Notes: generated by a model from the sequence alone, not told the origin. 64,000 bases of DNA from an uncultured bacterium (GCA_963705505.1 CAVPJU010000010.1:28488-92487); one strand, 5' to 3'. Shown: positions 39,041-62,921, counted from the stretch's first letter. Numbers and translations: made by a program.

Positions 39041-39318
39041 AACGTAAAATTACTTGAAGTATTTGGATGGCAGGCATGCCAGTTATTACAGGATGATACA
39101 GCAAATATATAATGCAATAACTGATGTTGGTAAATTAATATTTCGGATCACGGTTTAGAGTTAAAATACTTTTATTTACGAGCATTATGCAGAATATTAA
39201 ATATGTATAGTAATAACTACATATCATTGGATATTATGGCTCCACACTGCATCGATTGCCCGTATCCCGGAGTCAAAGTCTCAATCCACGAGAGCCGGAA
39301 GACGGAGGCTGACCCGGA

Positions 39319-39990: not shown

Positions 39991-40003
39991 GGGGCAATTC
40001 AAC

Positions 40004-40675
40004 ATGAGCCGGATAATGAGAAAAGTGCTGGTAGTCCTCACGTTCATAGGCATGGCTGCTTCCCTCTATGCCGCCTTCGTTTACGCACCCACCGAGCCCA
40101 AGATGGGGCACATACAGAGGATATTCTATATCCACATGGGGACTGTGTGGGTTGCGACTGTGGCGTTCATAATCGTATTCGTATCGAGCATTATGTATCT
40201 CTGGAAGGAGAGCAGGAAGTGGGACATCCTCGCTTACTGCTCAGCGGAGATAGGCGTCGTTTTCCTTACCATCACGATACTCACCGGGAGCATCTGGGCA
40301 AAGCCCATATGGGGCACATGGTGGACCTGGGACCCCCAGCTCACGACGACATTTATATTGTGGATACTCTATATCGTTTACCTCGTGCTCAGGTCGTCTG
40401 CCGGCAGCGACACGAAAAAGGCCAAGTTCGCTGCGGTCTTCGGAATAATCGCGTTTATCGACCTGCCGCTCGTATACATATCCGTGAGGGTCATGAGGGG
40501 TATCTCCCCCGTGGTGTTCGGCCCCGGAGGCGGGGGCATTACGCCCGAGATGCTGTATGCCCTCCTGATTAACCTTGCGACGTGTTCCCTTTTATTCATT
40601 TTGCTCCTCCTCGAGCGGATGGACATTGAGCGGATGGGCGACCGACTCGCGGGCTTAAAGGCCGGTAGAACCTGA
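40004..40675 (+). CDS. ccmC: heme exporter protein C
   Basis: WWD-type motif WGTWWTWDPQLTTTFILW and conserved His residues. 223 aa. Confidence 0.82.
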   Translation: MSRIMRKVLVVLTFIGMAASLYAAFVYAPTEPKMGHIQRIFYIHMGTVWVATVAFIIVFVSSIMYLWKESRKWDILAYCSAEIGVVFLTITILTGSIWAKPIWGTWWTWDPQLTTTFILWILYIVYLVLRSSAGSDTKKAKFAAVFGIIAFIDLPLVYISVRVMRGISPVVFGPGGGGITPEMLYALLINLATCSLLFILLLLERMDIERMGDRLAGLKAGRT

Positions 40676-40813
40676 TCCGGGGCGTGTGCGGTCTCATCGC
40701 CGGTCCGCCGCAGCGGGCGGCAATACTTAAGACGTAACATTACTAATACTGTATAATTAGCTTTCAATTAATAAGTATTAAATACGGCTCGGCTCTCTTT
40801 CAGGCAAAAGGCA

Positions 40814-41479
40814 ATGGAAAGTCAAGGCGAAATGTATGACTACTACGTAATAGCGGCGGTAGTCATCGGACTCATCGAGTGCTTTTTCGGCTACAGGATT
40901 CTCAGGTTCCTCCTGGGCGTGCTGGGCTTCATCGCAGGCGCCGTGGTGGCCGGGAGCCTCGGGTACGAGCTCTCAAACGGAAGCGAGCTGATTTCCATTA
41001 TCTCCGGTATAGCGGGCGGTGTCATAGGCGCTTTCATCATGTACACGCTCTACGTAGTGGGGGTGTTTGCCATAGGGGCGGCGCTCGGCTTCATGATAGC
41101 GTCCTACGTTTTCGGCATTATGAATACGGGCCCTGTCACTCTGATGCTCGTAGCCGCAGCCGCGGCAGGCGGTATTCTCGCGGCTGTTTTCCGGAAGCCC
41201 ATGCTTATACTCGCGACCGCTTACGGCGGCTCGTATGCGGCGGTTACGGGGGTTTCGTACCTGCTCGCAAAGAATTTCAATCCTCTCGATCCGGAGTTCC
41301 TGAATTCCCTCGGTGAGGACCAGCTCTACAGGATGGCGATTATATGGTTCGGCCTCGGGGTATTCGGCTTCGTCGTCCAGCTTATGACTCTTCCCGCCGC
41401 TGGAGAAGCCGGGGATTCCGCCGCGGACGACGTCGGGGAAGCGGGTGCCGGAGAGGAGGACGGGGGAAAGGAGTCCTGA
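40814..41479 (+). CDS. multi-pass membrane protein with Gly-zipper helices (possibly DUF4203-like), inserted in the ccm operon
   Basis: 221 aa, ~6 predicted TM helices, acidic C-terminal tail. Confidence 0.5.
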   Translation: MESQGEMYDYYVIAAVVIGLIECFFGYRILRFLLGVLGFIAGAVVAGSLGYELSNGSELISIISGIAGGVIGAFIMYTLYVVGVFAIGAALGFMIASYVFGIMNTGPVTLMLVAAAAAGGILAAVFRKPMLILATAYGGSYAAVTGVSYLLAKNFNPLDPEFLNSLGEDQLYRMAIIWFGLGVFGFVVQLMTLPAAGEAGDSAADDVGEAGAGEEDGGKES

Positions 41480-41552
41480 GGGCGGGCAAAAATCTGCTTT
41501 TATAACTAAAATTAGTCATTGACCGCGGTTAAAATATCCGTGAAACTGAGTA

Positions 41553-42323
41553 TTGCCGATTATTTCCGGCTGCGGGCGTGGTTTTAATAGGGGTAGCGTA
41601 TGGTTTTTTAATTTCCCGTGGGTGCAGGTATTCTTTTTAGAGCCGGTGAGGGAGATTGATTCTATCTTGAAAGCTGTATTGCTTCTCATAGCGCTTGCGG
41701 GTTTATGTTTTGCGGCATCGTGCTACGACTCTGAAGAAAAGGAGTCGAGCGTGATGAGGTTCCCGGTCTCGGACCAGGGTGAATTTAATGCGCTCGGAAA
41801 CGCCGTGATCGATAAGAACGTGACGAGCGACGGGAACGGCTCTCTCTCCGTAGATACTCAGTCGCCGGTGAGCATAGAGCTTTTCACGGTGGACGGCTCC
41901 GGCCTCGACCATACACGCGCCGCTTATAAGGCCATGATCAAGACTGAAGGGCTGACTGCCGCAGGGGATACGAAGGGTATAGCGTATCTCGAAATGAAGG
42001 TGCGTTACCCCGGAGGGGAGGAGCTCGTTTCCCGCGGCCCGCGCATCCCGCCTACGGGGACGACCGATTGGATGCCGGCTGAAGCCGTGCTCTATGCGGA
42101 TAAAGGCGTAAAACCTGACAGGGTCTCGCTCTCTCTTGTGGTCGACGGGAAAGGGAAGGTCTGGATAGACGACGTAATGCTGGTCACGCAGCCCCTAAGG
42201 CTCGAGTACCTCTTTTGGGGGAACACTGTTGTCTGGATAGTACTAATTATATATATTTATCAACTACTCGCGAAACAAAAAAGGCTCCGAAGGGAGCTCG
42301 GCTCGATGAGTCAGGGAACTTAA
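41553..42323 (+). CDS. hypothetical exported protein with N-terminal signal/lipoprotein-like segment and C-terminal TM anchor
   Basis: Hydrophobic N-terminus ..LKAVLLLIALAGLCFAASC and a C-terminal helix VVWIVLIIYIYQLL. The real start may be the TTG near 41658. Confidence 0.45.
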   Translation: MPIISGCGRGFNRGSVWFFNFPWVQVFFLEPVREIDSILKAVLLLIALAGLCFAASCYDSEEKESSVMRFPVSDQGEFNALGNAVIDKNVTSDGNGSLSVDTQSPVSIELFTVDGSGLDHTRAAYKAMIKTEGLTAAGDTKGIAYLEMKVRYPGGEELVSRGPRIPPTGTTDWMPAEAVLYADKGVKPDRVSLSLVVDGKGKVWIDDVMLVTQPLRLEYLFWGNTVVWIVLIIYIYQLLAKQKRLRRELGSMSQGT

Positions 42324-42368
42324 GATAGAATTTTTTGTAACCCCGGTCGTGAAGCCAAGGGTGAGCGA

Positions 42369-42806
42369 ATGCTTAAAGGCAAATTAAAATTCATCGTAGC
42401 GATCGTCGTGATAGCGCTTGCCGTGAGCTATCTGGTTTACGGCGGCGTGAAGGACACCATGGTGTATTACCTCACCGTGAAGGAGCTCAAGAGCAGAGTC
42501 CCTTCTATCTACGGCGAGAAGATCAGGGTGTCGGGGAAGGTCGTGCCGGGGTCCATAAAGCACGGCGCGGACGGGGCGCTCGAGTTCAGCATCGCTGACG
42601 GCGGAGGGGATATCGCTGTCGCTTACAGCGGGATCGTCCCCGATATCTTCAAGGATAACGTTGAAGCCGTCGTCGAAGGCGAGTACACTCCAAAGAACGT
42701 CTTTGAGGCGGATGTGCTCCTGGCCAAGTGTCCGACGAAGTACGAATCGACCGAGGCGCTGTATAATAAACCGGCCTCGGAAAACAAAGGGGTAAAATCC
42801 TACTGA
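42369..42806 (+). CDS. ccmE: cytochrome c-type biogenesis heme chaperone CcmE, Cys-variant (CxxxY instead of HxxxY)
   Basis: N-terminal TM anchor and an OB-fold. ...VLLAKCPTKYES aligns with E. coli ...LAKHDENY (heme-binding His130 replaced by Cys). Confidence 0.8.
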   Translation: MLKGKLKFIVAIVVIALAVSYLVYGGVKDTMVYYLTVKELKSRVPSIYGEKIRVSGKVVPGSIKHGADGALEFSIADGGGDIAVAYSGIVPDIFKDNVEAVVEGEYTPKNVFEADVLLAKCPTKYESTEALYNKPASENKGVKSY

Positions 42807-44812
42807 TGGTAGAGACAGGAAAGATATCAATATATCTGGCTTTCGCCGTATCCATCTATGTCGTATGCGCGTCGATTTACGGCGCGAGGACGGGGAAAGG
42901 CGATTTCATAAACAGCGCCCGGAACGGAGCGCTGGCAGTGTGTTTTCTCCTCATCGTTGCCGCGGGCTCTCTCCTTCATTCTCTCGTAAACCTCGATTTC
43001 AGTCTCAAGTACGTGGCGCTTAACACGAGCACCGATCTCCCGGTGATATACAGGTTTACTTCGCTCTGGGCGGGACAGGCGGGCTCACTCCTCCTCTGGT
43101 CGCTCATCCTGTCCATATACACTGCTCTCGTCGTCCTTTCGACCAGAAACAGATCGAGGAAGCTCATGCCCTATGTCCTGGCCGTTCTCGCGGCCATATT
43201 AGTCTTCTTCACCTACATAGTAGGCTTCGTTGAAAACCCTTTCGAAAAGCTCCCCGTAGCTCCGCTTGAGGGCAGGGGGCTTAACCCCATTCTCCAGAAC
43301 GCGTACATGGCTATCCATCCGGTCACGCTTTACCTCGGCTACGTCGGCGTGAGCGTCCCGTTCGCGTTCGGCATGGGCGCGCTGCTGAGCGGTCAGCTCG
43401 GCGACGAATGGATAAGATACTCCCGCAAATGGACCCTCCTCGCATGGACGTTCCTGAGCGTGGGGCTCCTGCTGGGCGCGCGCTGGGCTTACCTCGAGCT
43501 CGGGTGGGGAGGATACTGGGCGTGGGACCCGGTGGAGAACGCGGCTTTCATGCCCTGGCTTGCGGGCACGGCTTTCCTCCACTCGGTCATGATCCAGGAA
43601 AAGAAGGGCATGCTCAAGAAATGGAACATGGTTCTGTTGATCATCACTTTCTTTCTCGCTATATTCGGCACATTCATAACGCGAAGCGGCGTCATATCGT
43701 CGGTCCACTCATTCGCGCAGAGCGATATAGGCCCGCTCTTTCTGGGCTTCATAGCATTCTTACTTCTTTTTTCGTTCGCCGTGTTCCTCTACCGGATGCG
43801 GGACCTCGAATCCGAAAACAAATTCGACTCGATACTTTCGAGGGAAAGCGCTTTCATATTCAATAACCTGCTTTTCCTGGGCGCCGCGTTCGCGGTTTTC
43901 CTGGGCACGATCTTCCCGATCATGTCGGAGGCCGTGACAGGGCATAAGATCCTCGTGGGCTCGCCGTATTTCAACAGGGTGAACGTTCCGATTGCGCTCG
44001 TGCTTATTTTCCTCATGGGCGTGGGTCCGCTCATATCATGGAGGAAGGCGTCTAAGGAAAACCTCATGAAAAACTTTTTCGTCCCCGTCCTCATAGGCGT
44101 GGTCACTGCCGTCGTGCTGCTGTCGATCGGGGTGAGGGATGTTTACGCGCTCCTCTCTTACGCGTTCTGCGCGTTCGTCACGGGGACGGTATTCACGGAG
44201 TTCTTCCGCGGGGTGCGGGTCAGGAGCGGGAGGGGCGAGAATCCGGCTCTCGCTTTCGTGCGTCTCGTGTCGAGGAACAAGAGGAGATACGGCGGCTACA
44301 TTGTGCATATAGGCGTCGTATTGATAGTCCTGGGCATCACGTCTTCTTCCGTTTTCGTAACGGAGAAGCAGGCGACGCTCACGAAAGGGCAGTCGGTCGA
44401 GATAGGCGGATATACTCTCACGTACCGGGGGCTCGAGCAGTATACGACCGACGCAAAGAACGCCACAGTGGCCAAGCTCGACGGCTTTAAGAACGGAAAG
44501 GACATAGGTCTGATAGCACCCGAAAAGAACGTCTATAAATACGAAGGGAACCGCGAGATAAACCAGGAGACCGAAGTCTCCCTGAGATCGACATTCACCG
44601 ACGACCTCTATGTGATACTGATGAATTACAGCGGGGACGGCTCGGCGACCATCAGGGTCATAGTGAACCCTATGGTAAGCTGGATATGGGCGGGCGGACT
44701 CGTGCTGCTGATGGGGGCTATCGTAACCATGTGGCCCGGCGGACGGAAGGGGCGCGAGGAAGCTTTTGTCAGGTACACGTTAGGCGACAGTGACGGGACC
44801 GTAAAGGTGTAG
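42806..44812 (+). CDS. ccmF: cytochrome c-type biogenesis protein CcmF
   Basis: 668 aa polytopic protein with the WWD domain WGGYWAWDPVENAAFMPWL. Start overlaps the ccmE stop. Confidence 0.88.
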   Translation: MVETGKISIYLAFAVSIYVVCASIYGARTGKGDFINSARNGALAVCFLLIVAAGSLLHSLVNLDFSLKYVALNTSTDLPVIYRFTSLWAGQAGSLLLWSLILSIYTALVVLSTRNRSRKLMPYVLAVLAAILVFFTYIVGFVENPFEKLPVAPLEGRGLNPILQNAYMAIHPVTLYLGYVGVSVPFAFGMGALLSGQLGDEWIRYSRKWTLLAWTFLSVGLLLGARWAYLELGWGGYWAWDPVENAAFMPWLAGTAFLHSVMIQEKKGMLKKWNMVLLIITFFLAIFGTFITRSGVISSVHSFAQSDIGPLFLGFIAFLLLFSFAVFLYRMRDLESENKFDSILSRESAFIFNNLLFLGAAFAVFLGTIFPIMSEAVTGHKILVGSPYFNRVNVPIALVLIFLMGVGPLISWRKASKENLMKNFFVPVLIGVVTAVVLLSIGVRDVYALLSYAFCAFVTGTVFTEFFRGVRVRSGRGENPALAFVRLVSRNKRRYGGYIVHIGVVLIVLGITSSSVFVTEKQATLTKGQSVEIGGYTLTYRGLEQYTTDAKNATVAKLDGFKNGKDIGLIAPEKNVYKYEGNREINQETEVSLRSTFTDDLYVILMNYSGDGSATIRVIVNPMVSWIWAGGLVLLMGAIVTMWPGGRKGREEAFVRYTLGDSDGTVKV

Positions 44813-44858
44813 AAATTCTTAGCAGCTGTATTCAGCACAATTCATAAAAGGGATTAAA

Positions 44859-45398
44859 TTGGAAATTATACTGGCTTTAGTTATAGCTGCGCTTGCGGCT
44901 CTTTTTATTTCGATGCCCTTTTTCTTCAGGAGTAAAAAAAGATTCGGAGCGGAATATTTCCCCGACCCGCGCCAGGAGAAGCTGAAGGCGCTCCTTTCTC
45001 AAAAGGATTCCCTCCTCACGGCGATAAAGGATATCGAGTTCGATCACGGACTCGGAAAATTGTCGGGGGAGGATTTCGAGGAGCTGCACGGGAAGTACAG
45101 GAGCGAAGCCGCCCTGGTGCTGAAACAGATAGACTCTCTCGGCAAAGGAGACGCGGCGGTCGACGATTATGACGATATAGAGAAGGAAATCAGGGCGGAG
45201 CGGATGAAGTTTCTGACGTCTTACGATGACGAAGAGCTTGAGAAGGAGATACTGCGCGCACGCGAGGCAACATGGAATGCCGGCGGCGGAACGGTATTCT
45301 GTTCCAAATGCGGGAGCGCCTGCGAGGAGCAGGATCTCTACTGCTCAAAATGCGGCGCAAAGCTAAAGAATATTACGGAGAATAAAAATGCAGGGTAG
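44859..45398 (+). CDS. membrane-anchored protein with C-terminal zinc-ribbon (CxxC...CxxC)
   Basis: N-terminal TM (MEIILALVIAALAALFISMPFFF), a charged coiled region, and a C-terminal FCSKCGSACEEQDLYCSKCG. Confidence 0.5.
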   Translation: MEIILALVIAALAALFISMPFFFRSKKRFGAEYFPDPRQEKLKALLSQKDSLLTAIKDIEFDHGLGKLSGEDFEELHGKYRSEAALVLKQIDSLGKGDAAVDDYDDIEKEIRAERMKFLTSYDDEELEKEILRAREATWNAGGGTVFCSKCGSACEEQDLYCSKCGAKLKNITENKNAG

Positions 45399-46851
45399 GT
45401 CAGGCGCGTTCATCCTCACGTTTACTTTTCTGGCACTCTTGTTCATCCCCGGTGTATACAGGTCCTACGCCCAGAACCCGCACGATATGGACAAGATGGG
45501 GAAGGACCTTTTTATAGAGAACCGCTGCGTCAGATGCCATACGATAGGGAGGGGGAGGTTTGTGGGCCCCGATTTGAACGGCGTCGGCCAAAGGTACAAC
45601 CGGGACGAGTTAATCAAATGGATCGAGAACCCGCAGGCGGTCTATCAGTCAACGGGCAAGATGCCCATGAATGAAGGCTATCCTCCCATGCCCCCGATGG
45701 ACATCAACCCGATGGTGGCACAGGCCATAGCGGATTATCTCCTCGCTGTCAAAGTGAAGCCCGACACGGGGAAGGGCGGGACTATTATCGGAAAGGTGCT
45801 CAATAAGACCGAGAACACTGCAGTCCCCGACATAAAAGTCACGCTCGTGTCCTATATGGGAGATAAGGAAACGGGCAGGACGGATTCCAAAACTTCAAAG
45901 GACGGCAGCTTCTCGTTCACGGCCCTGCCCTGGGACAGGAGCTACGCGGTCACTATCGAATACGACAGCGCCGAGTACTCTACCGATAAGATGGTCTTCT
46001 ATCCGGACGAGGAGACGAAGACGCTCGACTTGCCCGTGTACGCACCCACGACGAGCGGAGATAGTATAGGCGTGACCGAAGCTCACATGATAGTTCAGGT
46101 GGTCGAGGGAGGCCTTTCTATAGCCGACCTCTCGGTCTTCGACAATAAAGGGGATAAGATGTATGTGGGAAGCGGGGAGCTCGCCGACGGAAAGAAGGAG
46201 ACGCTGAAATTCAGCGTCCCGCCGGACGCGGCTAATATTAATTTCATAAGCGGCCTCGCGCCCGAAAGCATTGTGAGGACACCGTCGGGCTTCTCCGATA
46301 CCGGGAGCGTTGCCCCGGGATCCAAAAGAATTGTATTTGCATATACGCTGCCGCTCGGCTCCGGCAGCGGATCAGTGGAGAAGACGATAGAATACCCCAC
46401 CGAGAAGTTCCTGCTCCTCGTATCGAAATCGAATGACACAGTCACGGTCGAGGGCCTCAGCGGAGGCGATACCGTGCAGATAGAGAAGGAGGATTTCATC
46501 AGGTGGTCGGGCGAGAACCTGAAGCCGGGACAGAAGTTTACGGTCAGGTTTGTGAACCCGACCGCGTGGAAGGAGTATATCAAGTGGGGAGCAATAGGGC
46601 TTTTAATTCTCGTCGTCGGAGGAGGAATAATTTATTCCTCGTTTGCGCGGGGCGGGAGTAAAGATGCCGACGAAGAGAAAAAGAACGGACGGAGAGAATC
46701 GCTCATGGAGAGGAGGAGCCATCTGGTAAAGGAGATAGCGGCTCTTGACGACGGATACGAAGCGGGGCGTATCGACGAAACGGCTTATAAGGAACTCAGG
46801 GAATCTAAGAAGGCGGAGCTTCTTGAAGTTACACGGAGACTGCGATTTTGA
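45388..46851 (+). CDS. monoheme cytochrome c domain protein with carboxypeptidase-regulatory-like beta domain and C-terminal TM anchor
   Basis: Signal peptide; CVRCHT heme-binding motif with a downstream Met; CarbopepD_reg-like segment (IGKVLNKTENTAVPDIKVTLVSY...SFSF); TM WGAIGLLILVVGGGIIY; cytoplasmic coiled tail. Confidence 0.6.
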   Translation: MQGRSGAFILTFTFLALLFIPGVYRSYAQNPHDMDKMGKDLFIENRCVRCHTIGRGRFVGPDLNGVGQRYNRDELIKWIENPQAVYQSTGKMPMNEGYPPMPPMDINPMVAQAIADYLLAVKVKPDTGKGGTIIGKVLNKTENTAVPDIKVTLVSYMGDKETGRTDSKTSKDGSFSFTALPWDRSYAVTIEYDSAEYSTDKMVFYPDEETKTLDLPVYAPTTSGDSIGVTEAHMIVQVVEGGLSIADLSVFDNKGDKMYVGSGELADGKKETLKFSVPPDAANINFISGLAPESIVRTPSGFSDTGSVAPGSKRIVFAYTLPLGSGSGSVEKTIEYPTEKFLLLVSKSNDTVTVEGLSGGDTVQIEKEDFIRWSGENLKPGQKFTVRFVNPTAWKEYIKWGAIGLLILVVGGGIIYSSFARGGSKDADEEKKNGRRESLMERRSHLVKEIAALDDGYEAGRIDETAYKELRESKKAELLEVTRRLRF

Positions 46852-51863: not shown

Positions 51864-51972
51864 TACTATTTTCTGACATACGACAGGGACGGGTTTCATT
51901 AATATCAATCGTTCCCGATAGTTACGATTGGCATTTAACTTTCTTAATAGTAATCGCAAAAGGAGGCTTTGC

Positions 51973-52380
51973 ATGTTGAAAAATAAGACTTTCTCATTCC
52001 CCGCCAGGATGCTGTTTATGATGCTGGTCGTTACTTTAAGTTTTCACATTTTTGTTCCCGTTTCCATCGGTTCGTCTGACGATGAGGTCGTGGAGAAGGG
52101 CCAAAAGGTTTTTCAGGACAAGGGATGTGTGGCGTGTCACTCGATAGGGAAGGGCAAGATCACAGGGCCCGACCTCTTCGGCGTTACTCAAAGGAGAGAT
52201 CCGGCTTGGATTAAGAAATGGATCATGTCCCCCGATACCATGATCATGTCGGACCCCATCGCGAAAGAATTATTCAAACAATACATGGTTCCGATGCCTA
52301 ATCAGGGGCTCACGGACGAACAGGCGGACATACTCATTGAGTATTTCAAGTATCAAGATGCTAACAACGCAAAAAAGTAA
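51973..52380 (+). CDS. monoheme c-type cytochrome (nos-associated)
   Basis: AGGAGG RBS before ATG 51973; signal/TM MLKNKTFSFPARMLFMMLVV...; CVACHS heme motif. Located immediately upstream of nosZ. Confidence 0.75.
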   Translation: MLKNKTFSFPARMLFMMLVVTLSFHIFVPVSIGSSDDEVVEKGQKVFQDKGCVACHSIGKGKITGPDLFGVTQRRDPAWIKKWIMSPDTMIMSDPIAKELFKQYMVPMPNQGLTDEQADILIEYFKYQDANNAKK

Positions 52381-52419
52381 ATCTATGAGAAACCTTTTTA
52401 CACAAGGAGGTACGTAAAC

Positions 52420-54464
52420 ATGTCAGGATTGAAGAAGTGGATCACATTATTGCCGGTTTTTTTCTTGGCTCTGACTACGGTCTTTTTTACGAGCTGTAGG
52501 AATTCCGGTAGTGAGAAGCAGGCGAGTAAACAGGAGACCGTAACATGGGGATTGTCCGAGAGGCGGAGCAGGTAGCGGAGTCGAGGGGTCTTACGCCCAA
52601 GGACGTTGAGGCCGCTCTCAAGACTTACGTGCCTTCGGGGAAATATGACGATTACCTGATGTTTGCCTCCGGAGGACATTCCGGTCAGGTGTTCGTCATT
52701 GGCGTTCCTTCTATGAGGCTCCTCAAAGAGATAGCGGTATTCACGCCGGAGCCCTGGCAGGGATTTGCGACCGGATCGAAGGAGTCGGACGATTTACTGA
52801 AAGAAGGCTATATGCCCAACGGAAAAGACGGAAAGCTTACCTGGGCGGATACACACCACCCCGCTCTAAGCGAGACGAAAGGCGATTACGACGGACAGTT
52901 CTTATTCATAAACGATAAAGCCAATGCGAGGATCGCAGTCATCGACCTCCGCGACTTTGAAGTAAAACAGATCGTAAAGACGCCGAACATGATCTCGGAT
53001 CACGGCGCTACCTTTGTTACCCCGAATACCGAATACGTAATTGAGGGTTCCCAGTATGCAACGCCCCTTCCTTTCGAACGATACGCTCCTATGGATGAGT
53101 ATAAGGACAAATACAGGGGTCTCATTACGTTTCATAAGTTCGACAGGGAGAAGGGAAGGATAGACGAGTCCCAGTCATTCCAGATCGAGCTGCCTCCCTA
53201 CTGGCAGGACCTCTGCGACGCCGGGAAGAAAGTCAGTGAAGGATGGGTATTCTGCAACTCCATAAATACGGAGCTCGCCACAGGCGGCATTGAGCAGGGC
53301 AACCCTCCCTATGAAGCGGGCGTATCTCAAAGAGACATGGACTATATGCACGTAATTAACCTGAACAAGGCCGTCGAGGTTTCAAAAGAGGCGGGCAAGA
53401 CAGAGGTTATTAACGGAATGAAGGTAATTCCGCTCAACACGGCTATCTCGGAAGGTCTTTTGTATTTCATACCGGAGCCCAAGAGCCCCCACGGAGTCGA
53501 TGTAGCCCCGGGAGGAGATTATATAGTCGCTTCCGGCAAGCTCGACACACACGCGACGGTATATTCCTTCGACAAGATAATGGATGCCATGAAAAATAGC
53601 AAAATCGAGGGTAAGGATCCCTTCGGCGTCCCTGTACTGAACTTTAAGGATGTCGTCGCAGCGCAGGTCGAGATAGGCCTCGGGCCTCTCCATACGCAGT
53701 TCGATAACGAGGGTAACGCATATACGAGCGTTTTTATCGAGAGTACGGTTGCAAAATGGAAACTGGGCCCTCCTTACAATACGGGGGCAGACGCCTGGAC
53801 CCTCGTTGAGAAGATGCCGGTTGACTACAACATAGGCCACCTGGTTTGTGCGGAGGGCGATACCGTGTCCCCGGACGGCAAGTACTGTGTCGCGCTGAAC
53901 AAGTGGTCCATAGACAGGTTTACTCCGGTCGGCCCGCTGCATCCTCAGAATTTCCAGCTGATAGACATTTCGGGAAAGAAGATGCAGCTGCTTTACGATA
54001 TGCCTATAGGCTCAGGCGAGCCGCATTACGTTCAGATGATCAAGGCTGACAAGCTCAAACCATGGCTCGTTTATCCGGAGGTGGGATTTGATCCGGCGAC
54101 GATGAGCGTCAATCCCGACGCGGCAAAAGCCGGGGGTGAGAAAGTCGTGCGGAGTAACGGAAAAGTCGAGGTATGGATGACCGCTATCAGGAGCCATTAC
54201 AACCCCGAGCACATAGTCGCGAGCGAAGGGGATAAAGTAATAATACATATCACGAGCGTGGAGCGGGCGAGGGACGCTACACACGGTTTCGCCATCGACG
54301 GCTACAACGTTAACCTGAGCCTGGAGCCGGGTGAAAGCGAGACGGTGGAGTTCGTCGCGGACAAGGTTGGTGTGTATCCGTTCTACTGCACGGAGTTCTG
54401 CTCGGCGCTTCACCTGGAGATGATGGGTTATCTCCTTGTTGAGCCAAAACAGCCAAAGTCATGA
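52420..54464 (+). CDS. nosZ: nitrous-oxide reductase NosZ, Sec/lipoprotein-type (clade II-like); signal peptide and mature domain in different frames
   Basis: C-terminal CuA cupredoxin site ...FYCTEFCSALHLEMMGY; N-terminal beta-propeller region. The signal peptide MSGLKKWITLLPVFFLALTTVFFTSC (no twin-Arg) starts at 52420 and ends at a stop near 52570. The body ORF starts at 52545 in the -1 frame. One extra G in the G4 run at 52547-52550 would fuse the two parts. Confidence 0.85.
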
Positions 54465-54558
54465 ACTACTGAGGGCGCCCCATCCGGACCTTTAGTCACG
54501 GGAAGTGAAGGAGGGGGCGTCCTCGGTTCTAACCCAAAACGGAATAAGGAGGTTTGTT

Positions 54559-54928
54559 ATGAAAAAGTTAATAGCGCCGTTTTTACTTGTAACTTTGTTA
54601 GTGTTAGCGGGCGCCGTTTACGGAGCCCAAAATGCAAGAGACTGCCCAGTCGTGGCAGAAGCAGGCAAACGATACCAGGGCAGCTGTTATGAAAGTCTAC
54701 GGCGAGCTCGAGAAGCTGGATGTCAAGTCAGCAGCCGATGCGAAGGATCTTATTGCCGATGCCGTCGCCCAGCTCGGCGAAGGGGATAAGTACCTTAAGC
54801 AGGGGGACGAAGCCATGAATAAACAGGATTGGGAAAAGGCTAATTACGGTTATAACATGGCATGGCAGTATTACGTAAAAGCCGCAACATCCGGATTAAA
54901 TGCAAAGAGAATTTTAACCGGACAATAA
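54559..54928 (+). CDS. small secreted protein downstream of nosZ, apparent +1 frameshift between signal peptide and body
   Basis: AGGAGG RBS; signal peptide MKKLIAPFLLVTLLVLAGAVYGAQ; helical body MQETAQSWQKQ...AWQYYVKAA in the next frame. The A4 run at 54629-54632 is the likely indel site. Confidence 0.5.
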
Positions 54929-55061
54929 AAACTCAGGAGAACGGCGGTTCTCCCATACGACTGGGGACGCTCTTGAATAGCGGATATTTTAGAGTATTCC
55001 CCGCCGGTTGTTCAGAAGGGCCGATCTGAATACGATGTTATTACGAACGGAGGTTTAAAAA

Positions 55062-55715
55062 ATGAAAGAAAACGAATTGATATTCGGGCCGCGAATACCG
55101 AAGGAGCTGTGGGAGAAGGAGAGAAAGAGGTTTCTTGTTCCTTCGATCGTCCTCGTCGTTGCCGCGGTGCTGCTTTTCATCTCGATATTTCTCCCTTATT
55201 GGAAACTTACACTTTTCGCGCCTCAGTATCCTCAGGGTCTCAAAGCCAGTATGTACGTAAACAGGCTTGCGGGGGATATTCAGGAGATAGACGGGCTCAA
55301 TCACTATATAGGAATGAAGCCCATGGACGAGGCTGCCGTGCTCGAACGCACGCTCAGCATATTCATGATCATCGGTATAGCGCTCCTCATCGCGGGGGCC
55401 GTATACGTGCACAGCCCGATTGCGCTTTTCCTGTGCATCCCGGCGGTGCTTTACCCCGCGTTCTTTCTGGGCGACCTCTATTTCTGGATGCGGACCTTCG
55501 GCACGAACCTTAATCCGCACGCCCCTTTAAGCAGTGCGATAAAGCCCTTCGTACCACCCATACTCGGCGTGGGCCAGATCGCACAATTCAAGACTATCGC
55601 GAGCTGGGAGATAGGTCTCTATATGTCTATCGCGGCTTCGGTACTGATTGTCATAGGCCTCTACTTTCATCGTAAAGCTTATAAGCCGTTAATAGTAAAT
55701 GAAGGCGTCAGGTAG
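55062..55715 (+). CDS. nosB: NosB-like integral membrane protein (nos cluster)
   Basis: 217 aa, ~4-5 TM helices, positioned between nosZ and nosD as in clade II nos clusters. Confidence 0.55.
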   Translation: MKENELIFGPRIPKELWEKERKRFLVPSIVLVVAAVLLFISIFLPYWKLTLFAPQYPQGLKASMYVNRLAGDIQEIDGLNHYIGMKPMDEAAVLERTLSIFMIIGIALLIAGAVYVHSPIALFLCIPAVLYPAFFLGDLYFWMRTFGTNLNPHAPLSSAIKPFVPPILGVGQIAQFKTIASWEIGLYMSIAASVLIVIGLYFHRKAYKPLIVNEGVR

Positions 55716-55741
55716 AGAAAGGTGTAAATCCCGGGTGACCC

Positions 55742-57142
55742 GTGACTAAATATTGCCTTCTACATTTTTCCACGATCGTTATTCTTGCCCTCTCCGGAGC
55801 TGTGAACGGAGCGGCTGTCGCCAGGACAATCCATGTCTCACCGGACGGCCCCGTAAGATCAATTACTGAGGCTATAGCTTCTGCTGAGAGCGGTGATACC
55901 ATACGCATCCTGAAGGGAGACTATAAAGAACATATAGTAATCAACAAGACTTTAACAATTATAGGAGAGGGTTATCCCCGCATAGACGGCGGGGGGAAAG
56001 GAGTCGTCGTTTTAATAAAAGCCCCGAGTACCGTATTCAGGGGTATTCATGTGACGGGGAGCGGCGACAGCCTGAACCTTGAGGACGCTGGTATTATCCT
56101 CGATTCCGCACACGGGAGCGTCATAAAAGAAAACCGGCTCGATGATGTGCTCTTCGGTATATACCTCAAAAACTCTCCCGACAGTGTAATAGAAAAGAAC
56201 GTCGTCGAGGGCAAGCGGCTTACACTTCCCGAACGCGGCGACGGAATAAAGCTCTGGTACAGCTCAGGGACGAAGATACTCTATAACCGGGTCCTCCACA
56301 CTAGGGACCTTGTTATTTGGTGGTCGAGCAATACGCTTATAAAAGGGAATACCGTCGAGGAAGGAAGATACGGACTTCATTACATGTCGAGTAACCATAA
56401 CAGGTTCGAGGACAACATTTTCAGGAATAACTATGTGGGCGGGTTCCTCATGTATAGCAAGGGGATTGAGTTTTACAGGAATAGGTTCGTCAGTAACCGC
56501 GGCACGGGGTCGGGCTACGGAGTCGGGTTCAAGGACCTCGACGACGTAGTAGCCAAAGACAACCTTATCGCGGACAACCGCGTTGGAATCTTTCTCGATA
56601 ACTCGCCCTACCTCATCGATTCGTGGAATAATATAAGCGACAACGTTATAGCTTTCAACGACATAGGCGTCTCCCTCATGCCTTCGATAAGGAGGAACGC
56701 TTTTCACAAGAACAGCTTCGTAGATAACGACGAGCAGGTGGAGATAAGGGGAGGGGGAGAGCTTGCAGGGAACGAATGGTCCAAGGACGGCAGCGGGAAT
56801 TACTGGAGCGATTACATCGGATATGACGAGGACGGGGACGGGATAGGAGAGATACCCTACAAGTCCGAGAGCCTCTTCGAGAGCCTTATAGACTCGAAGC
56901 CCGAGCTCAGGATATTCGTGTTCAGCCCTGTTGCGAAGGCAATAGAGCTCGCTTCTCAGGCGTTTCCCGTGATCAAGCCCGAGCCCAAGCTCACGGACGA
57001 CTATCCGCTCGTCAGCTCGGCGATACCGCCTGACCTCAGGGCAGGCGGGAGGGAAAGGGAGTTGTCGCCGAGGCTTCTTTTCCTGTCCCTCTCTATGGTG
57101 ATGCTTCCCCTGATCTTTTACGGCTACATTATGAAACGGTAA
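55742..57142 (+). CDS. nosD: NosD, periplasmic parallel beta-helix copper-processing protein
   Basis: Signal peptide, repeated right-handed beta-helix units (NxxxxNxxxGI...), C-terminal TM. 466 aa. Confidence 0.82.
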   Translation: MTKYCLLHFSTIVILALSGAVNGAAVARTIHVSPDGPVRSITEAIASAESGDTIRILKGDYKEHIVINKTLTIIGEGYPRIDGGGKGVVVLIKAPSTVFRGIHVTGSGDSLNLEDAGIILDSAHGSVIKENRLDDVLFGIYLKNSPDSVIEKNVVEGKRLTLPERGDGIKLWYSSGTKILYNRVLHTRDLVIWWSSNTLIKGNTVEEGRYGLHYMSSNHNRFEDNIFRNNYVGGFLMYSKGIEFYRNRFVSNRGTGSGYGVGFKDLDDVVAKDNLIADNRVGIFLDNSPYLIDSWNNISDNVIAFNDIGVSLMPSIRRNAFHKNSFVDNDEQVEIRGGGELAGNEWSKDGSGNYWSDYIGYDEDGDGIGEIPYKSESLFESLIDSKPELRIFVFSPVAKAIELASQAFPVIKPEPKLTDDYPLVSSAIPPDLRAGGRERELSPRLLFLSLSMVMLPLIFYGYIMKR

Positions 57143-57155
57143 ACGGGAGCTTGAA

Positions 57156-58055
57156 TTGATTGAGATTAAGAACGTAACGAAGCGTTTCGGAAAGCTGACT
57201 GCAGTCGATTCGGTGAGCTTCAGGGCTGAAAAGGGTGAAGCGGTTTCCCTCCTCGGCGCGAACGGCGCCGGAAAGAGCACGCTTATCAAATGCATACTCG
57301 GGCTCCTCGATTATACGGGCGAGATTACGGTGAGCGGGCTCAGGGTGAAAGACCACCCGAAGGAGGCGAAGTCCCTAATCGGATACCTGCCGCAGGAGCC
57401 TCTTTTCTACGATATGCGCACACTCGATATAGTACGTTTCTTCGCGCGGCTCAGGAAAATTGACGAGAGGGGTTCATTGTCGGTCCTGGAGAAAGTGGGG
57501 CTTGGGGAGCACTCTTCCAAATACGCTTCAGAGCTTTCGGGAGGCATGAGGCAGCGCCTCTCTTTCGCTATAGCGCTTCTATCAGAGCCTATGTTCCTGA
57601 TACTGGACGAGCCCACTTCCAACCTCGATGCTCACGCGCGCGCTGAATTCCTCAGGCTAATCAAGGAATACAAGGAGAACGGTAAGACGGTGATCTTTTC
57701 CTCGCACAGGCTCGACGAGGTGGACTATCTGGCTGACAGGGCGGTCCTGATGAAAGACGGCAGTGTCGTCATGGACGAGGAGCCGCACAGGCTGAGGCAG
57801 TCCCTCGGGCTCGGCACGAAGATGAATATCGCTGTCCCTGAGGAGTATGTCACACTGGCGTATTCGGCGTTCGCCGGTGCCGGCATAATAGTTCACGGCA
57901 GAAACGGAAGGGGCTTCCTCGTGGAGGTGAAGAGCGGGGACAGCCTCCATCCTCTGAGGGAGCTGATGTCGAGAGACATACCCGTCCTCGGGTTCAGCGT
58001 CGAGGAGCCTACCATGGAAAATATACTCGAAGGAGCGGGAAAAGATGGAGCTTAG
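57156..58055 (+). CDS. nosF: NosF, ABC transporter ATP-binding protein
   Basis: Walker A GANGAGKST, signature LSGGMRQRL, Walker B LILDEPTSNLD. Confidence 0.82.
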   Translation: MIEIKNVTKRFGKLTAVDSVSFRAEKGEAVSLLGANGAGKSTLIKCILGLLDYTGEITVSGLRVKDHPKEAKSLIGYLPQEPLFYDMRTLDIVRFFARLRKIDERGSLSVLEKVGLGEHSSKYASELSGGMRQRLSFAIALLSEPMFLILDEPTSNLDAHARAEFLRLIKEYKENGKTVIFSSHRLDEVDYLADRAVLMKDGSVVMDEEPHRLRQSLGLGTKMNIAVPEEYVTLAYSAFAGAGIIVHGRNGRGFLVEVKSGDSLHPLRELMSRDIPVLGFSVEEPTMENILEGAGKDGA

Positions 58056-58884
58056 AAATATTCTCATACTGGCGGGGAAGGAAACGAGGGAGTCGCTCAA
58101 GAACAGGTGGTTCGTTTTATATACCGTCTCTTTTTCCGTCCTCGCCGTGCTCATCTTTTCTATAGCGCCCGGGAGGGGCGAGATCACGGGCATATCGGGC
58201 TACGGCAGGACGGCCGCGAGCCTGGTCAACCTCGTGCTTCTCTTTGTCCCGCTAATAGCGCTTATAACCGGAGCGATAAGCATATCCGGGGAGAGAGAGA
58301 ACGGAACGCTGCAGTACCTGCTCTCGCACCCCGTAACCAAATCCGAGGTGTTCGTGGGCAAGTTCTGCGGGATACTCATCCCGATCTGTTTTTCAATTTC
58401 GCTCGGTTTCGGGCTCGCCGGTATAGGAGTCGCGCTCAGAGGCGGGAGCGGGAACTCGGCGGAGTTCATACTGACTGCGCTCCTATCGGGGCTCCTGGCT
58501 GCGTCCCTGCTGAGCGTGGGGTTTGTCGTCTCGGTGTTTTCGGGCAGGGCTTCGAAGGCGATAGGCGTCGCGGTGTTCCTCTGGCTCCTTTTTATCGTTC
58601 TCGGAGACCTCGGCATCATGGGCACAGCTGCAGCGATGGACCTCGGCATAAAGCAGGTCTTCGTGCTCGCGCTGCTAAACCCGGCGGAGGTGTTCAAGAT
58701 CGCTTCCGTGCTCGTGCTCAGTCCGCGGTTCGAGATACTGGGCCCAGTCGGAGTTTACGCCGTCAGGACGTTCGGCAGGGAAGGGGTGGTCTATCTGCTC
58801 CTCTCCGTCATGGCGCTATGGACCATCATACCGTTCGTATATGCATTTATAACTTTCAGCATATTCAGGAGGGAAGAAGCATGA
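58045..58884 (+). CDS. nosY: NosY, ABC-2 type permease
   Basis: 279 aa, 6-TM permease. Overlaps nosF and nosL. Confidence 0.78.
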   Translation: MELRNILILAGKETRESLKNRWFVLYTVSFSVLAVLIFSIAPGRGEITGISGYGRTAASLVNLVLLFVPLIALITGAISISGERENGTLQYLLSHPVTKSEVFVGKFCGILIPICFSISLGFGLAGIGVALRGGSGNSAEFILTALLSGLLAASLLSVGFVVSVFSGRASKAIGVAVFLWLLFIVLGDLGIMGTAAAMDLGIKQVFVLALLNPAEVFKIASVLVLSPRFEILGPVGVYAVRTFGREGVVYLLLSVMALWTIIPFVYAFITFSIFRREEA

Positions 58885-59315
58885 AATACTTGCTCATACT
58901 GCTTGTGCTCCTGGGTTTCGCCGCCTGTAAGGATAAAATCGATACCGGGCCTCATATTATTCATTACGGGGAAGATGTCTGCGAGAGGTGCAAGATGATT
59001 ATAAGCGACAAGCGTTTTGCCGCCCAATACATCACGGAGAGCGGCGAGGCTAAAAAATTCGACGATATAGGGTGCATGATGGAGGCGCTCAAAGAGAAAA
59101 ACAAGGACGGTGGCGGCGTGCTCGCCGTCTATGTCACCGACTACGTCACCGGGGAATGGATAGACGGCGGAAAGGCTTTTTATCTCAAAAACACGGAGCT
59201 CAAGACCCCTATGGGGTACGGTATTGCAGCTTTCGGAAACGAGGAATCGATGCGGGCGAGCCCATTTTATAAGGACGGGCGGGCGCTCGGGGGAATCGAT
59301 GACCTCCAGAAATAA
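58881..59315 (+). CDS. nosL: NosL, copper-chaperone lipoprotein
   Basis: MKYLLILLVLLGFAAC (lipobox), then a conserved NosL core (...GPHIIHYGEDVCERCKMII...DIGCM...). It sits in frame inside the spurious 402-aa ORF 58107..59315. Confidence 0.8.
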   Translation: MKYLLILLVLLGFAACKDKIDTGPHIIHYGEDVCERCKMIISDKRFAAQYITESGEAKKFDDIGCMMEALKEKNKDGGGVLAVYVTDYVTGEWIDGGKAFYLKNTELKTPMGYGIAAFGNEESMRASPFYKDGRALGGIDDLQK

Positions 59316-59334: not shown

Positions 59335-59922
59335 ATGGATAAAAGGATTATAGATCCTAGTGAGAAGATTCAGAGCGCCGCGCTTGCGCTCTTTATCAAA
59401 AAAGGCATAGCGGGCACGACGACAAAAGAGATCGCGAGGAAGGCGGGTGTATCCGAAGGCTCCATTTATAATTACTTCGAGAGCAAGGGAGACCTCGCGT
59501 ATAAGCTCTTTGTCCGGTATATGGACAAGTTCAGGGACGAGCTCTCGGTAAAATCGGCAGGCGCGGACGGCCCCGCGGGAAAGCTATCCGCCGTCGTCGG
59601 GGCTTTCTTCGGATTTGCCGAGAGAGAGCCCGAGGCATACGCCTATATAATGATAGGACACTACACCGAGCTCCAGAAAATGAAATATGACAAAAAGAAG
59701 CCCAAGGACGTATTCGTCGAAATAATCGGGGAAGGCGTTAAAAACGGCGTATTCATGAGCATGGACGAGAACCTCGGGGCAGCCTTCGTCATAGGGATGG
59801 TTACCAGGGCGATCCTTTTTCATAAGAGCGGCATGCTCGGTATGCCCTATGCGAGGCTTATAGAGGATACCGTGGCCTCTTCCTTACGCGTCCTCGGCGC
59901 AGACACGCCGCGGCCCTTGTAA
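59335..59922 (+). CDS. TetR/AcrR family transcriptional regulator
   Basis: HTH region TTTKEIARKAGVSEGSIYNYFESKGDL. Confidence 0.8.
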   Translation: MDKRIIDPSEKIQSAALALFIKKGIAGTTTKEIARKAGVSEGSIYNYFESKGDLAYKLFVRYMDKFRDELSVKSAGADGPAGKLSAVVGAFFGFAEREPEAYAYIMIGHYTELQKMKYDKKKPKDVFVEIIGEGVKNGVFMSMDENLGAAFVIGMVTRAILFHKSGMLGMPYARLIEDTVASSLRVLGADTPRPL

Positions 59923-60035: not shown

Positions 60036-60428
60036 ATGCTCGTAAAAGAATGTATGACCGTAAACCCTGTGACCTTTTCCCCTAAAGAGGACGTCAGGGT
60101 CGCCTTTAACACACTTACCGACCGCAAGATTCGTCAGGCGCCTGTACTCGAGAATGGAAAGCTGGCCGGTATAGTCACGGACAGGGACCTCAGGCTCGCG
60201 GTGGTGGAGACCCTTACGGAGCCGGGTTTGACTGTGGGTTCCGTCATGACGCGGGACCCCGTAACGGTCAACGAGAATTCTTTACTCAAAGATGCGGCCA
60301 GGGTGATCGGTAAAAACAAGTTCAACGCGCTCCCGGTGCTTTCCGATTCCGGTGAGCTCGTGGGCGTCCTCACTACCACCGATATACTCAACGGTCTCGT
60401 TAGAGCGCTCGATGCGGAGAAAAAATGA
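60036..60428 (+). CDS. CBS-domain pair protein
   Basis: 130 aa, two CBS motifs. Confidence 0.7.
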   Translation: MLVKECMTVNPVTFSPKEDVRVAFNTLTDRKIRQAPVLENGKLAGIVTDRDLRLAVVETLTEPGLTVGSVMTRDPVTVNENSLLKDAARVIGKNKFNALPVLSDSGELVGVLTTTDILNGLVRALDAEKK

Positions 60429-60486: not shown

Positions 60487-60927
60487 ATGAAGATTGAGAA
60501 AATATTGTTTCCGACGGATTTCTCCGCCAGGTCGCTCAGCGCGAGGGAGCACGCGCTTTACCTCGCCCGGGCCCTCGACTCGTCCGTTTATCTGCTTCAC
60601 GCGATAGAGCCTCTGAAATACGAGGAGGTGGACGACGAGATCAGGGAATTTTATAAGACGCTCGAGACCCAGCTCGGTGAAAAAATGGAACGGGAAAAAG
60701 AGGTCTTTGAAAAAAGGGGTCTAAGGGTGGATACGGACATAGTTATCGGTCAGAGGTGGAGGGTAATAGACACATATGCCAAAGAGAAGGGAATCGACCT
60801 GATAATCATGGGGTCGCACGGCATCAGGACCGAGACGGGGGAGGTTTCCGTGGGCACGACTAGCCACAAGGTCATGTTCTCGTCCCCATGCCCCGTTCTG
60901 ATAGTGAGGCACGACGAAGCCCGTTAG
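60487..60927 (+). CDS. universal stress protein (UspA family)
   Basis: 146 aa: ILFPTDFS..., ...DLIIMGSHG..., ...S.VLIV. Confidence 0.8.
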   Translation: MKIEKILFPTDFSARSLSAREHALYLARALDSSVYLLHAIEPLKYEEVDDEIREFYKTLETQLGEKMEREKEVFEKRGLRVDTDIVIGQRWRVIDTYAKEKGIDLIIMGSHGIRTETGEVSVGTTSHKVMFSSPCPVLIVRHDEAR

Positions 60928-61823: not shown

Positions 61824-62921
61824 ATGAGAAACCTGAGACAAATGATAAATAGAACGACTATAGCTGCTGCCGTATTCGCGTTCGCAGCATCGGGGGTATT
61901 AATGACGGGAGACGCCTATTCCCGGGGCGGGTTCGGAGGAGGAGGGTTCGGAGGCGGTTACAGGGGCGCGGATTTCGGCTCAGGAATGGGCGACAGGGGC
62001 TTCGGAAACGTCAGGTATTCGGGGAACAGCATGGGTGACATGTCCGGCTACAAGGGCTTTCAGGGGGATAATTTCGGAAGCAAACAGTCCTTCCAGAACT
62101 CCGATTTCAGTCAGGACAAGAGCGACTTCGGCGGGGATCAGGACTCATTCTCGGGCCGCCAGTCCGAGTCCCAGGACAATACGGGCATGACCCAACGCCA
62201 GGCCACGAGCCAGAACCGCGCCATAGAATCCGATAACGGGCAGAATACCAGCAAAACGACCAACGGCACGACGACTAACGGCAAGACCAACAGCAGCACG
62301 AACAGCAACAGCACGAACAAAAATAACACCAACAACACCAATAACAGCAACAATTCCAACAACAAGAATAACAACAACAATAACAACAATAATAATAATA
62401 ATAACACCTACAACACCTACAACAATTACAACAACTACAATCACTATTGGGGCGGATACTGGGGCTCATGGGGCGGTTATTACGGCGGGTGGGCTTTCGC
62501 GGGCGGCCTGGCCATGGGAGCCGCAATAGCGAGTATCCCGGCAAGCTCCTCCACTGTCTATGTATCGGGAAATCCGTTCTATTATTCGGACGGCGTGTAC
62601 TACGCTCCTCAGGGCAGCCAGTACATAGTCGTTCCGCCTCCGCCGGGCGCAGTCGTCGATACGCTCCCACCGTCATGCGACACCGTATATGCAGGTGATG
62701 ATTCGTATTTTGACTGCGGGGGCGCGTTCTATTCGTCTGCGGACGCGGGGTTTCAGGTCGTACAGCCCCCTGTGGGCGCGACAGTGGACTCTCTCCCCCA
62801 GGGAGCGCAGCGGAAAACAATAAACGGGACGACTTACTATCTCTTCGGCGCCGCGTATTACCAGCCGTTTTACAGCGGGAGCAGCGTGATATACCAGGTA
62901 GTCCCCGATCCGACTGCTTAA
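61824..62921 (+). CDS. secreted Gly-rich / poly-Asn low-complexity protein with C-terminal duplicated Pro/Cys motif
   Basis: Signal peptide; GGFGGGGFGGGY...; ~50-residue N/T/K run encoded by an (AAC/AAT)n tract; YWGGYWGSWGGYYGGW; two copies of VVPPPPGAVVDTLP... / VVQPPVGATVDSLP.... Confidence 0.55.
   Translation: MRNLRQMINRTTIAAAVFAFAASGVLMTGDAYSRGGFGGGGFGGGYRGADFGSGMGDRGFGNVRYSGNSMGDMSGYKGFQGDNFGSKQSFQNSDFSQDKSDFGGDQDSFSGRQSESQDNTGMTQRQATSQNRAIESDNGQNTSKTTNGTTTNGKTNSSTNSNSTNKNNTNNTNNSNNSNNKNNNNNNNNNNNNNTYNTYNNYNNYNHYWGGYWGSWGGYYGGWAFAGGLAMGAAIASIPASSSTVYVSGNPFYYSDGVYYAPQGSQYIVVPPPPGAVVDTLPPSCDTVYAGDDSYFDCGGAFYSSADAGFQVVQPPVGATVDSLPQGAQRKTINGTTYYLFGAAYYQPFYSGSSVIYQVVPDPTA
62300..62450 (+). 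repeat. imperfect (AAC/AAT)n trinucleotide microsatellite inside the CDS
   Basis: aacaacaagaataacaacaacaataacaacaataataataataat... The coding frame gives poly-Asn. Confidence 0.8.

Follow-up and report, generated by a model that had tools for sequence, protein, structure and literature searches.

What is the small protein encoded between nosZ and nosB in a nitrous oxide (N2O) reductase cluster of an uncultured bacterium, and why do its gene and nosZ each carry a single-nucleotide frameshift? The question is raised by positions 51973-59315 of a stretch of 64,000 nucleotides (nt), GCA_963705505.1 CAVPJU010000010.1:28488-92487, hereafter called the window, where nine reading units were identified on the + strand. 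With good confidence, two statements hold together: the cluster is a clade II nos operon, and the small protein is homologous to a C-terminal tail of NosZ. Worth recording are this free-standing homologue of the proteobacterial clade II NosZ tail and the paired frameshifts of the assembly; the presence of the cluster is not new, since nosZ has already been reported in Dadabacteria in earlier literature.

The two genes at the centre of the question, and the element directly after them, comprise the following features.

52420..52575, + strand: nosZ 5' fragment (signal peptide and linker), an open reading frame (ORF) of 51 codons that stops at an out-of-frame TAG.
52530..52572, + strand: nosZ frameshift interval, equivalent to a 1-nt deletion, holding a G4 run at 52547-52550.
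52545..54464, + strand: nosZ body ORF, 639 amino acids (aa), with CuZ beta-propeller and CuA cupredoxin and no in-frame signal peptide.
54559..54633, + strand: 5' fragment of the small gene, with signal peptide MKKLIAPFLLVTLLVLAGAVYGAQN and an AAGGAGG ribosome-binding site.
54634, + strand: most parsimonious site of the 1-nt insertion (G) in the small gene, from the DNA alignment with loci L081, L082 and L083.
54632..54928, + strand: small-protein body ORF, 98 aa, a three-helix bundle in the AlphaFold2 (AF2) model.
54934..54955, + strand: GC-rich hairpin directly 3' of the small gene.

No Pfam or NCBIfam domain was matched by the small protein. Its family comprises 194 homologues in a large protein collection, likewise without a Pfam domain; among the matches listed nearly all are 122-127 aa long (mostly 122 aa), with a signal peptide and a 'hypothetical' annotation. 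Named homologues belong to metagenome-assembled genomes (MAGs) of Thermodesulfobacteriota, Deltaproteobacteria or Dadabacteria. In 19 diverse members 43 columns are invariant, including those of the motifs SWQxQAxxTR, DAxxxLxxGD and NMAWQYYVKAATxGLNA. When 1.8 billion representatives were searched exhaustively with a profile, only 43 clusters were recovered. Most are free proteins in the range of about 120-136 aa, and some few are of NosZ length or C-terminal fragments of NosZ (P0153 with 779 aa, P0148, P0157, P0147 and P0135). P0149 (E 1e-5), a weak match whose gene adjoins a TPR/GerE regulator and no nos genes, was set outside the core family.

All 12 related GTDB loci with enough flank, and the Logan contigs L081-L084, carry the gene in the same place, with nosZ before it and nosB after it. 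Of 69 metagenome loci, 63 have nosZ as its immediate upstream neighbour and 59 have nosB as the immediate downstream one. Divergent members adjoin nosZ or nosB too (L085, L086, L087 and L147-L159). A first-pass annotation of the window had set this gene apart from the canonical cluster and proposed a search for its homologues in other nos clusters; that search found it beside nosZ or nosB in nearly all loci, and the gene is a conserved member of the cluster of this lineage. As it intervenes, nosB is not directly 3' of nosZ, unlike the textbook order.

The likeness to NosZ was identified by tblastn. In loci of Thauera, Azonexus, Denitromonas, Accumulibacter, Rhodoferax and Thiohalomonadaceae the small protein matched a segment about 70 nt beyond the point where the NosZ alignment stops. 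This segment is inside the same ORF as NosZ in all 18 Beta/Gammaproteobacterial loci (tblastn E 1e-10 to 2e-4) and forms a C-terminal extension of 115-120 aa, as in L066, whose NosZ has 762 aa. When the profile of the free protein was aligned to that of the tail with hhalign, the match covered 87 columns at 98% probability and E 3e-13, and the motifs DAxxQLG, WxxA and WQYxVKAAxxGLxAK are common to both. Wherever the free gene is present, NosZ stops 0-3 residues from the catalytic domain and has no tail. In about 49 of the 80 GTDB loci, which are the relatives among the matches listed, the free gene and the NosZ tail are both absent, and the small protein has no tblastn match there.

Judged by these profile comparisons, the small gene is a free-standing copy of the NosZ tail domain, an unnamed domain for which Pfam and NCBIfam have no model. 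None of the solved NosZ structures aligns by sequence to the tail of the Thauera NosZ (L066), their matches ending at about residue 649 of 762. A C-terminal alpha-helix, perhaps this segment, has been described in AlphaFold models of some clade II NosZ (PMC11828985), and no description of a free-standing NosZ-tail protein was found in the literature. One free-standing member of 122 aa, P0116 (JGI), bears the source annotation 'nitrous-oxide reductase'. The label presumably comes from its likeness to the NosZ tail, and such entries could inflate counts of nosZ.

The catalytic subunit itself is of the Sec-dependent kind. The NosZ body scored 853 bits on the NCBIfam model TIGR04246 (Sec-dependent, cut-off 625) and 426 bits on TIGR04244 (TAT-dependent), under the cut-off of 625, and reached 205 bits on the clade III L-NosZ (lactonase-type) model against a cut-off of 700. 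PF18764, Cupredoxin_1 and COX2 were matched as well, and the CuA motif YCTEFCSALHLEM fits the CxxFCxxxHxEM ligand pattern. Upstream of the body ORF all frames were inspected and no twin-arginine (Tat) signal was found, a motif whose recovery after frameshift correction the first-pass annotation had named, together with a clade I placement of NosZ, as a possible refutation. Its statement that nosR and nosX are absent also stands: the Pfam search of 40 further ORFs across the 64-kb window identified no NosR, NosX/ApbE or NosG/H. Clade II has been defined by export through Sec, by cytochrome genes, by nosB adjoining nosZ and by the lack of nosR and nosX (PMC11096178, PMC9697520). The cluster falls within this definition, given the score on the Sec model, the lack of a Tat motif, the flanking cytochrome c and nosB, the presence of nosDFYL and the absence of nosR and nosX. 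As had been proposed from its architecture, the nos cluster is an ordinary one of clade II, in a lineage already known, and the earlier classification was right.

What is not ordinary is the state of the two genes. The nosZ signal peptide MSGLKKWITLLPVFFLALTTVFFTSC is Sec/lipobox-like, with KK and no RR, and aligns to the in-frame signal peptide of the NosZ of L082; its ORF is preceded by a strong ribosome-binding site (AAGGAGG, 7 nt upstream). The kind of signal is the one first described, but it sits in a separate ORF, out of frame with the body, and nosZ, which had been taken to encode an intact secreted protein, has its signal peptide cut off by a 1-nt frameshift as assembled. The frame of the body is closed upstream by a TAA at 52527-52529 and the frame of the signal stops at 52573, so the frameshift must fall in 52530-52572. 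One added G gives a precursor of 681 aa, the NosZ of the nearest relative (L082) having 678. The body keeps all 153 columns that are conserved in at least 98% of 76 homologues. Since the frameshift parts the signal peptide from the body, the cluster in its assembled form would fail to export NosZ.

The small gene is broken in the same manner. The secreted helical protein of about 120 aa that had been assigned to 54559-54928 exists in its two parts, signal peptide and helical body, but these lie in different frames as assembled; the span measures 370 nt, is not divisible by 3 and bridges the frameshift. The frame of the signal peptide begins at 54559 and aligns to the in-frame signal peptides of P0002-P0012, and the helical body at 54632-54928 occupies another frame. 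DNA alignment with L081, L082 and L083 places one extra base in the window, AAAATGCAAG against GAGAAT-CAGG. The most parsimonious placement would be an inserted G at 54634, creating the ATG at 54632, the alternative being an extra A in the adjacent A4 run. With G54634 removed the precursor has 122 aa, the usual length of the family. The deposited record holds the same 98-aa ORF (P0001, 100% identical, on a contig of 866,016 bp). Read literally, neither NosZ nor the small protein would be exported from this assembly.

By a rough estimate, the balance tips slightly towards both frameshifts being consensus or assembly errors in the length-variable linker that follows the signal peptides. About 100 related loci carry the two genes unbroken. 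In 65 of the 69 metagenome loci the signal peptide of the small gene is in frame, the remaining four being truncated or containing Ns, and that of nosZ is in frame in all 37 metagenome loci that could be evaluated; in L001-L013 each of the two genes is in one frame with its signal peptide. The seven other genes of the cluster are full length and both signal peptides and ribosome-binding sites are intact. Both frameshifts are located in the variable linker, with a G4 run in nosZ and an adjoining A4 run in the small gene. Long-standing decay is disfavoured, because the 153 of 153 columns, the signals and the ribosome-binding sites are intact and one-base repairs restore normal lengths.

Two points weigh against a consensus error. 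The 40 other ORFs examined in the window have no internal stop, nearly all giving near full-length domain matches, and two errors within 2.1 kb are therefore unexpected. The indels fall on just the two genes that other lineages carry as a fusion, as relaxed selection after loss of NosZ predicts. Exact-protein look-ups of NosB, the NosZ body and the small ORF returned no encoding contig and hence no second assembly of the species, and no metagenome scanned for the exact DNA spanning the nosZ frameshift gave a match. The estimate leaves considerable room, somewhat under an even share, for real frameshifts, in which case N2O reduction would have been recently lost, nosZ and its partner being young pseudogenes in an otherwise undecayed cluster. 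Both frameshifts do stand in the deposited assembly (P0001), which is not generally prone to indels, the broken pair is functionally linked, and the small gene of L115 is likewise disrupted by a premature stop. The zero substitutions at the conserved NosZ columns and the intactness of everything else in the cluster speak against this account, and two indels at the same unusual place, both by homopolymers, are better explained by consensus errors than by random mutation. The less likely reading is that the two frameshifts are genuine and record a coordinated, recent loss of a two-part enzyme. In L115 (small gene at about 5001-5291) the in-frame stop replaces an invariant Trp near the 5' end (...AENEESAKS*QEQ).

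The next question is what the intact small protein would do. The tail is fused to NosZ in other lineages and the free gene adjoins nosZ, which makes the product a putative NosZ-binding subunit. That it takes the part of the tail, bound to NosZ in the periplasm as a subunit of its own, is in our estimate about as likely as not. A shade less probable is the more specific proposal that it is an unrecognised, dissociable subunit of clade II NosZ, needed for stability, for docking to the membrane or a partner, or for electron supply. In the AF2 model of the 98-aa body three helices were identified (2-27, 35-63 and 67-96), with a predicted local distance difference test (pLDDT) of 94.4 and a predicted template modelling score (pTM) of 0.85. 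The protein has no Cys or His, and a structural, docking or stabilising role is for this reason likelier than metal binding.

It is improbable that the small protein has no action on NosZ, being a generic periplasmic helical protein whose likeness to the tail reflects an old domain shuffle without shared function. In favour of this reading, the protein has no metal-binding residues, and a Foldseek search of the PDB retrieved generic designed helical bundles, none at E <=0.001, and no structural homologue of known function. Three family members in metagenome loci (L141, L143 and L144) are without nos context, and no co-varying NosZ surface was detected, the NosZ columns exclusive to lineages with the tail or the free protein numbering 1 against 6 in a control grouping, that is, no signal. 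The last two of these points also count against a NosZ-binding subunit. All four are opposed by the very tight linkage to nosZ in the 63 metagenome and 12 GTDB loci given above, seen also in the divergent L085 and L086, by the exact fusion to NosZ in 18 of 18 loci, by the strong conservation of the family and by the lack of a tail on the NosZ of loci with the free gene. The members of L141 (4124-4552), L143 and L144 are 54% identical to the small protein of the window and have signal peptides. L141 is a high-GC contig where the neighbours, judged by eye, are luciferase-like and acyl-CoA-dehydrogenase-like ORFs.

The copper centres of NosZ are built in the periplasm by NosDFYL, and its electron donor is periplasmic too. 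That the frameshifts are functional, through programmed ribosomal frameshifting or through internal initiation at the ATGs 52545 and 54632 to give leaderless cytoplasmic proteins, is very improbable: both downstream ORFs do have an ATG with a Shine-Dalgarno-like GGAG 6-8 nt upstream, the one of the small gene being made by the inserted base itself, but every evaluable relative is single-frame, a cytoplasmic NosZ would be inactive because copper assembly and electron donor are periplasmic, and programmed frameshifting was ruled out since inspection of the overlap intervals found no canonical slippery heptamer or +1 shift site and no relative is shifted.

The whole nos cluster with its neighbours reads, on the + strand, cyt c, nosZ, small gene, nosB, nosDFYL and then TetR, CBS and Usp. 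The ORF analysis returned the same genes, order and limits (51973-59315) as the first-pass annotation. The features other than nosZ and the small gene are as follows.

51973..52380, + strand: cytochrome c, 135 aa, PF00034 (E 1.5e-12), a single CVACH, AAGGAGG ribosome-binding site.
55062..55715, + strand: nosB, 217 aa, four hydrophobic segments, LNHYIGM.
55742..57142, + strand: nosD, periplasmic beta-helix maturation protein, TIGR04247 and PF05048.
57156..58055, + strand: nosF, ABC ATPase, PF00005 and synteny.
58045..58884, + strand: nosY, ABC-2 permease, PF12679 and synteny.
58881..59315, + strand: nosL, copper-chaperone lipoprotein (MKYLLILLVLLGFAAC...), PF05573, lipoprotein start placed by the analysis.
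59335..59922, + strand: TetR-family regulator, PF00440.
60036..60428, + strand: CBS-pair protein, PF00571.
60487..60927, + strand: Usp (universal stress protein), PF00582.

The cytochrome c upstream of nosZ had been described as monoheme, and its one CVACH and PF00034 match agree with that; it has an N-terminal signal or anchor sequence and is the probable electron donor to NosZ. A homologue precedes nosZ in L001-L013 and in many metagenome loci. Further upstream, about 5 kb away, a System I cytochrome c maturation set was identified at 38309-46851, comprising an ABC ATPase, CcmB, a CcmC-like protein, CcmE and CcmF; after it comes a protein of 487 aa that contains a cytochrome c domain. The set is consistent with a periplasmic electron chain that depends on c-type cytochromes. 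An FNR/CRP-like palindrome, TTCATTAATATCAA, is located at 51895-51908, about 65 nt upstream of the start of the cytochrome c gene, and matches TTGAT-N4-ATCAA at 9 of 10 positions. The window as a whole has only two such sites. As a control site of nos this box was dropped, having no equivalent in 14 related loci.

NosB, a polytopic membrane protein whose gene serves as the marker of clade II, matched no Pfam or NCBIfam model. It is reportedly needed for N2O respiration, as a Wolinella deletion mutant is said to show. The four transmembrane segments expected of it were recovered as four hydrophobic segments in a hydropathy scan, and LNHYIGM is exact. Both LNHYIGM and YGHN are given as NosB stretches in PMC9697520, which for LNHYIGM cites Spanning 2011. 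The YGHN site reads FGTN in the window; across 63 instances in homologues the pattern is [FY]GxN, where x is His 33 times and otherwise Met, Gln, Thr or Leu. Homologues of NosB adjoin nosZ or nosD in about 75 of the 80 loci. Two nosB paralogues are present in some related clusters (L002 12647-14164 and L009 6573-8210), being about 40-45% and about 73-75% identical to the NosB of the window, and L009 also carries a short extra nosD-like fragment.

The accessory genes that had been listed next, nosDFYL, were all recovered. NosD scored 422.7 bits on TIGR04247 (cut-off 300) and NosL 51.6 bits on PF05573 (cut-off 24). NosF and NosY matched generic ABC models only and were assigned by synteny with related loci, nosF being syntenic in all of these. 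Between the small gene and nosB, hairpins like the one at 54934-54955 were identified after the small gene in L001, L003, L004 and L006, not in all relatives. This hairpin may be a partial terminator or an mRNA stabiliser between cyt c-nosZ-small gene and nosB-nosDFYL, and would fit expression of the first three as a structural unit ahead of the others. The spacer of 94 nt from the nosZ stop to the small gene (54465-54558) can also form a long GC-rich hairpin (about -37 kcal/mol).

Pfam matches likewise identified the TetR, CBS-pair and Usp genes that had been placed after the cluster. A TetR homologue is located directly after nosL in L081, L082, L093 and L095 and before the cytochrome c gene in L002, L009, L011 and L140; it may be a nos regulator of this lineage. 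CBS and Usp are conserved downstream, with synteny in L005, L081 and L082. Beyond them a DUF2092 periplasmic protein, whose gene is syntenic in L082, precedes a DUF6515 protein (61824-62921) of Asn-rich low complexity, with a run of about 13 Asn in a region rich in N, T and S. No tRNA genes and no Rfam families above the gathering threshold were found in the 64-kb window (1-64000).

Among the matches listed, the nearest NosZ relatives are 78-86% identical and almost all belong to MAGs of Thermodesulfobacteriota, Deltaproteobacteria or Candidatus Dadabacteria. The host is, on the evidence of sequence, a Dadabacteria-like Thermodesulfobacteriota bacterium. The clusters of these MAGs (L001-L013, L081-L084 and L092-L146, for example UBA2774 and HR37) have an identical gene order, which holds for all 12 related GTDB loci and for L081-L084, with small proteins 62-87% identical to that of the window. 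The closest loci (L082 and L092-L095) read sufS, cyt c, nosZ, small gene, nosB, nosDFYL and TetR, and L082, which has a long flank, continues with CBS, Usp and DUF2092; the upstream sufS and downstream TetR-CBS-Usp-DUF2092 are shared with the window. Unlike the window, these clusters have nosZ and the small gene each in a single frame with its signal peptide.

Three known systems are more distant. The first is the type of Wolinella succinogenes (nosZ-B-D-G-C1-C2-H-F-Y-L), Gemmatimonas and Anaeromyxobacter, which shares the Sec-type NosZ, cytochrome c, nosB, nosDFYL and the lack of nosR and nosX with the window (PMC11096178, PMC9697520). Unlike it, the window cluster lacks the NosGH/NosC1C2 quinol-dehydrogenase module and Rieske or cytochrome b genes, its nosZ is parted from nosB by the small secreted gene, and its NosZ has neither a cytochrome c domain nor a tail. 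The second is the tailed NosZ of Thauera, Azonexus, Denitromonas, Accumulibacter, Rhodoferax and Thiohalomonadaceae, whose tail is helical and homologous to the small protein over about 87 residues at 30-38% identity, whereas in the window the domain has a gene and a signal peptide of its own. The third is clade I nosRZDFYLX (Pseudomonas stutzeri and Paracoccus denitrificans), with the same NosZ fold, copper centres and NosDFYL system, clade I enzymes being the best solved-structure matches to NosZ (E about 1e-100). In contrast to clade I, the window has nosB and lacks a Tat signal on NosZ, nosR and nosX.

From established knowledge of the family, an intact cluster of this kind would work as follows. 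NosZ would be exported unfolded by Sec and then lipid-anchored, NosDFY and the lipoprotein NosL would assemble its CuZ and CuA centres in the periplasm, and the monoheme cytochrome c would pass electrons to it, NosB being a clade II-specific membrane partner with a presumed essential role. The small secreted three-helix bundle is predicted to act in the periplasm as a detachable tail that docks on the NosZ body.

Organisms with clade II NosZ are considered an important sink of N2O, a greenhouse gas, and their accessory proteins are poorly understood. Automated surveys counting this genome as an N2O reducer would score a nosZ that, as deposited, has no export signal. The tail of Thauera/Dechloromonas-type NosZ occurs in the lineage of the window as a separate exported protein of 98 aa, a tractable target, as it could be expressed alone, tested for NosZ binding and deleted without touching the catalytic subunit.

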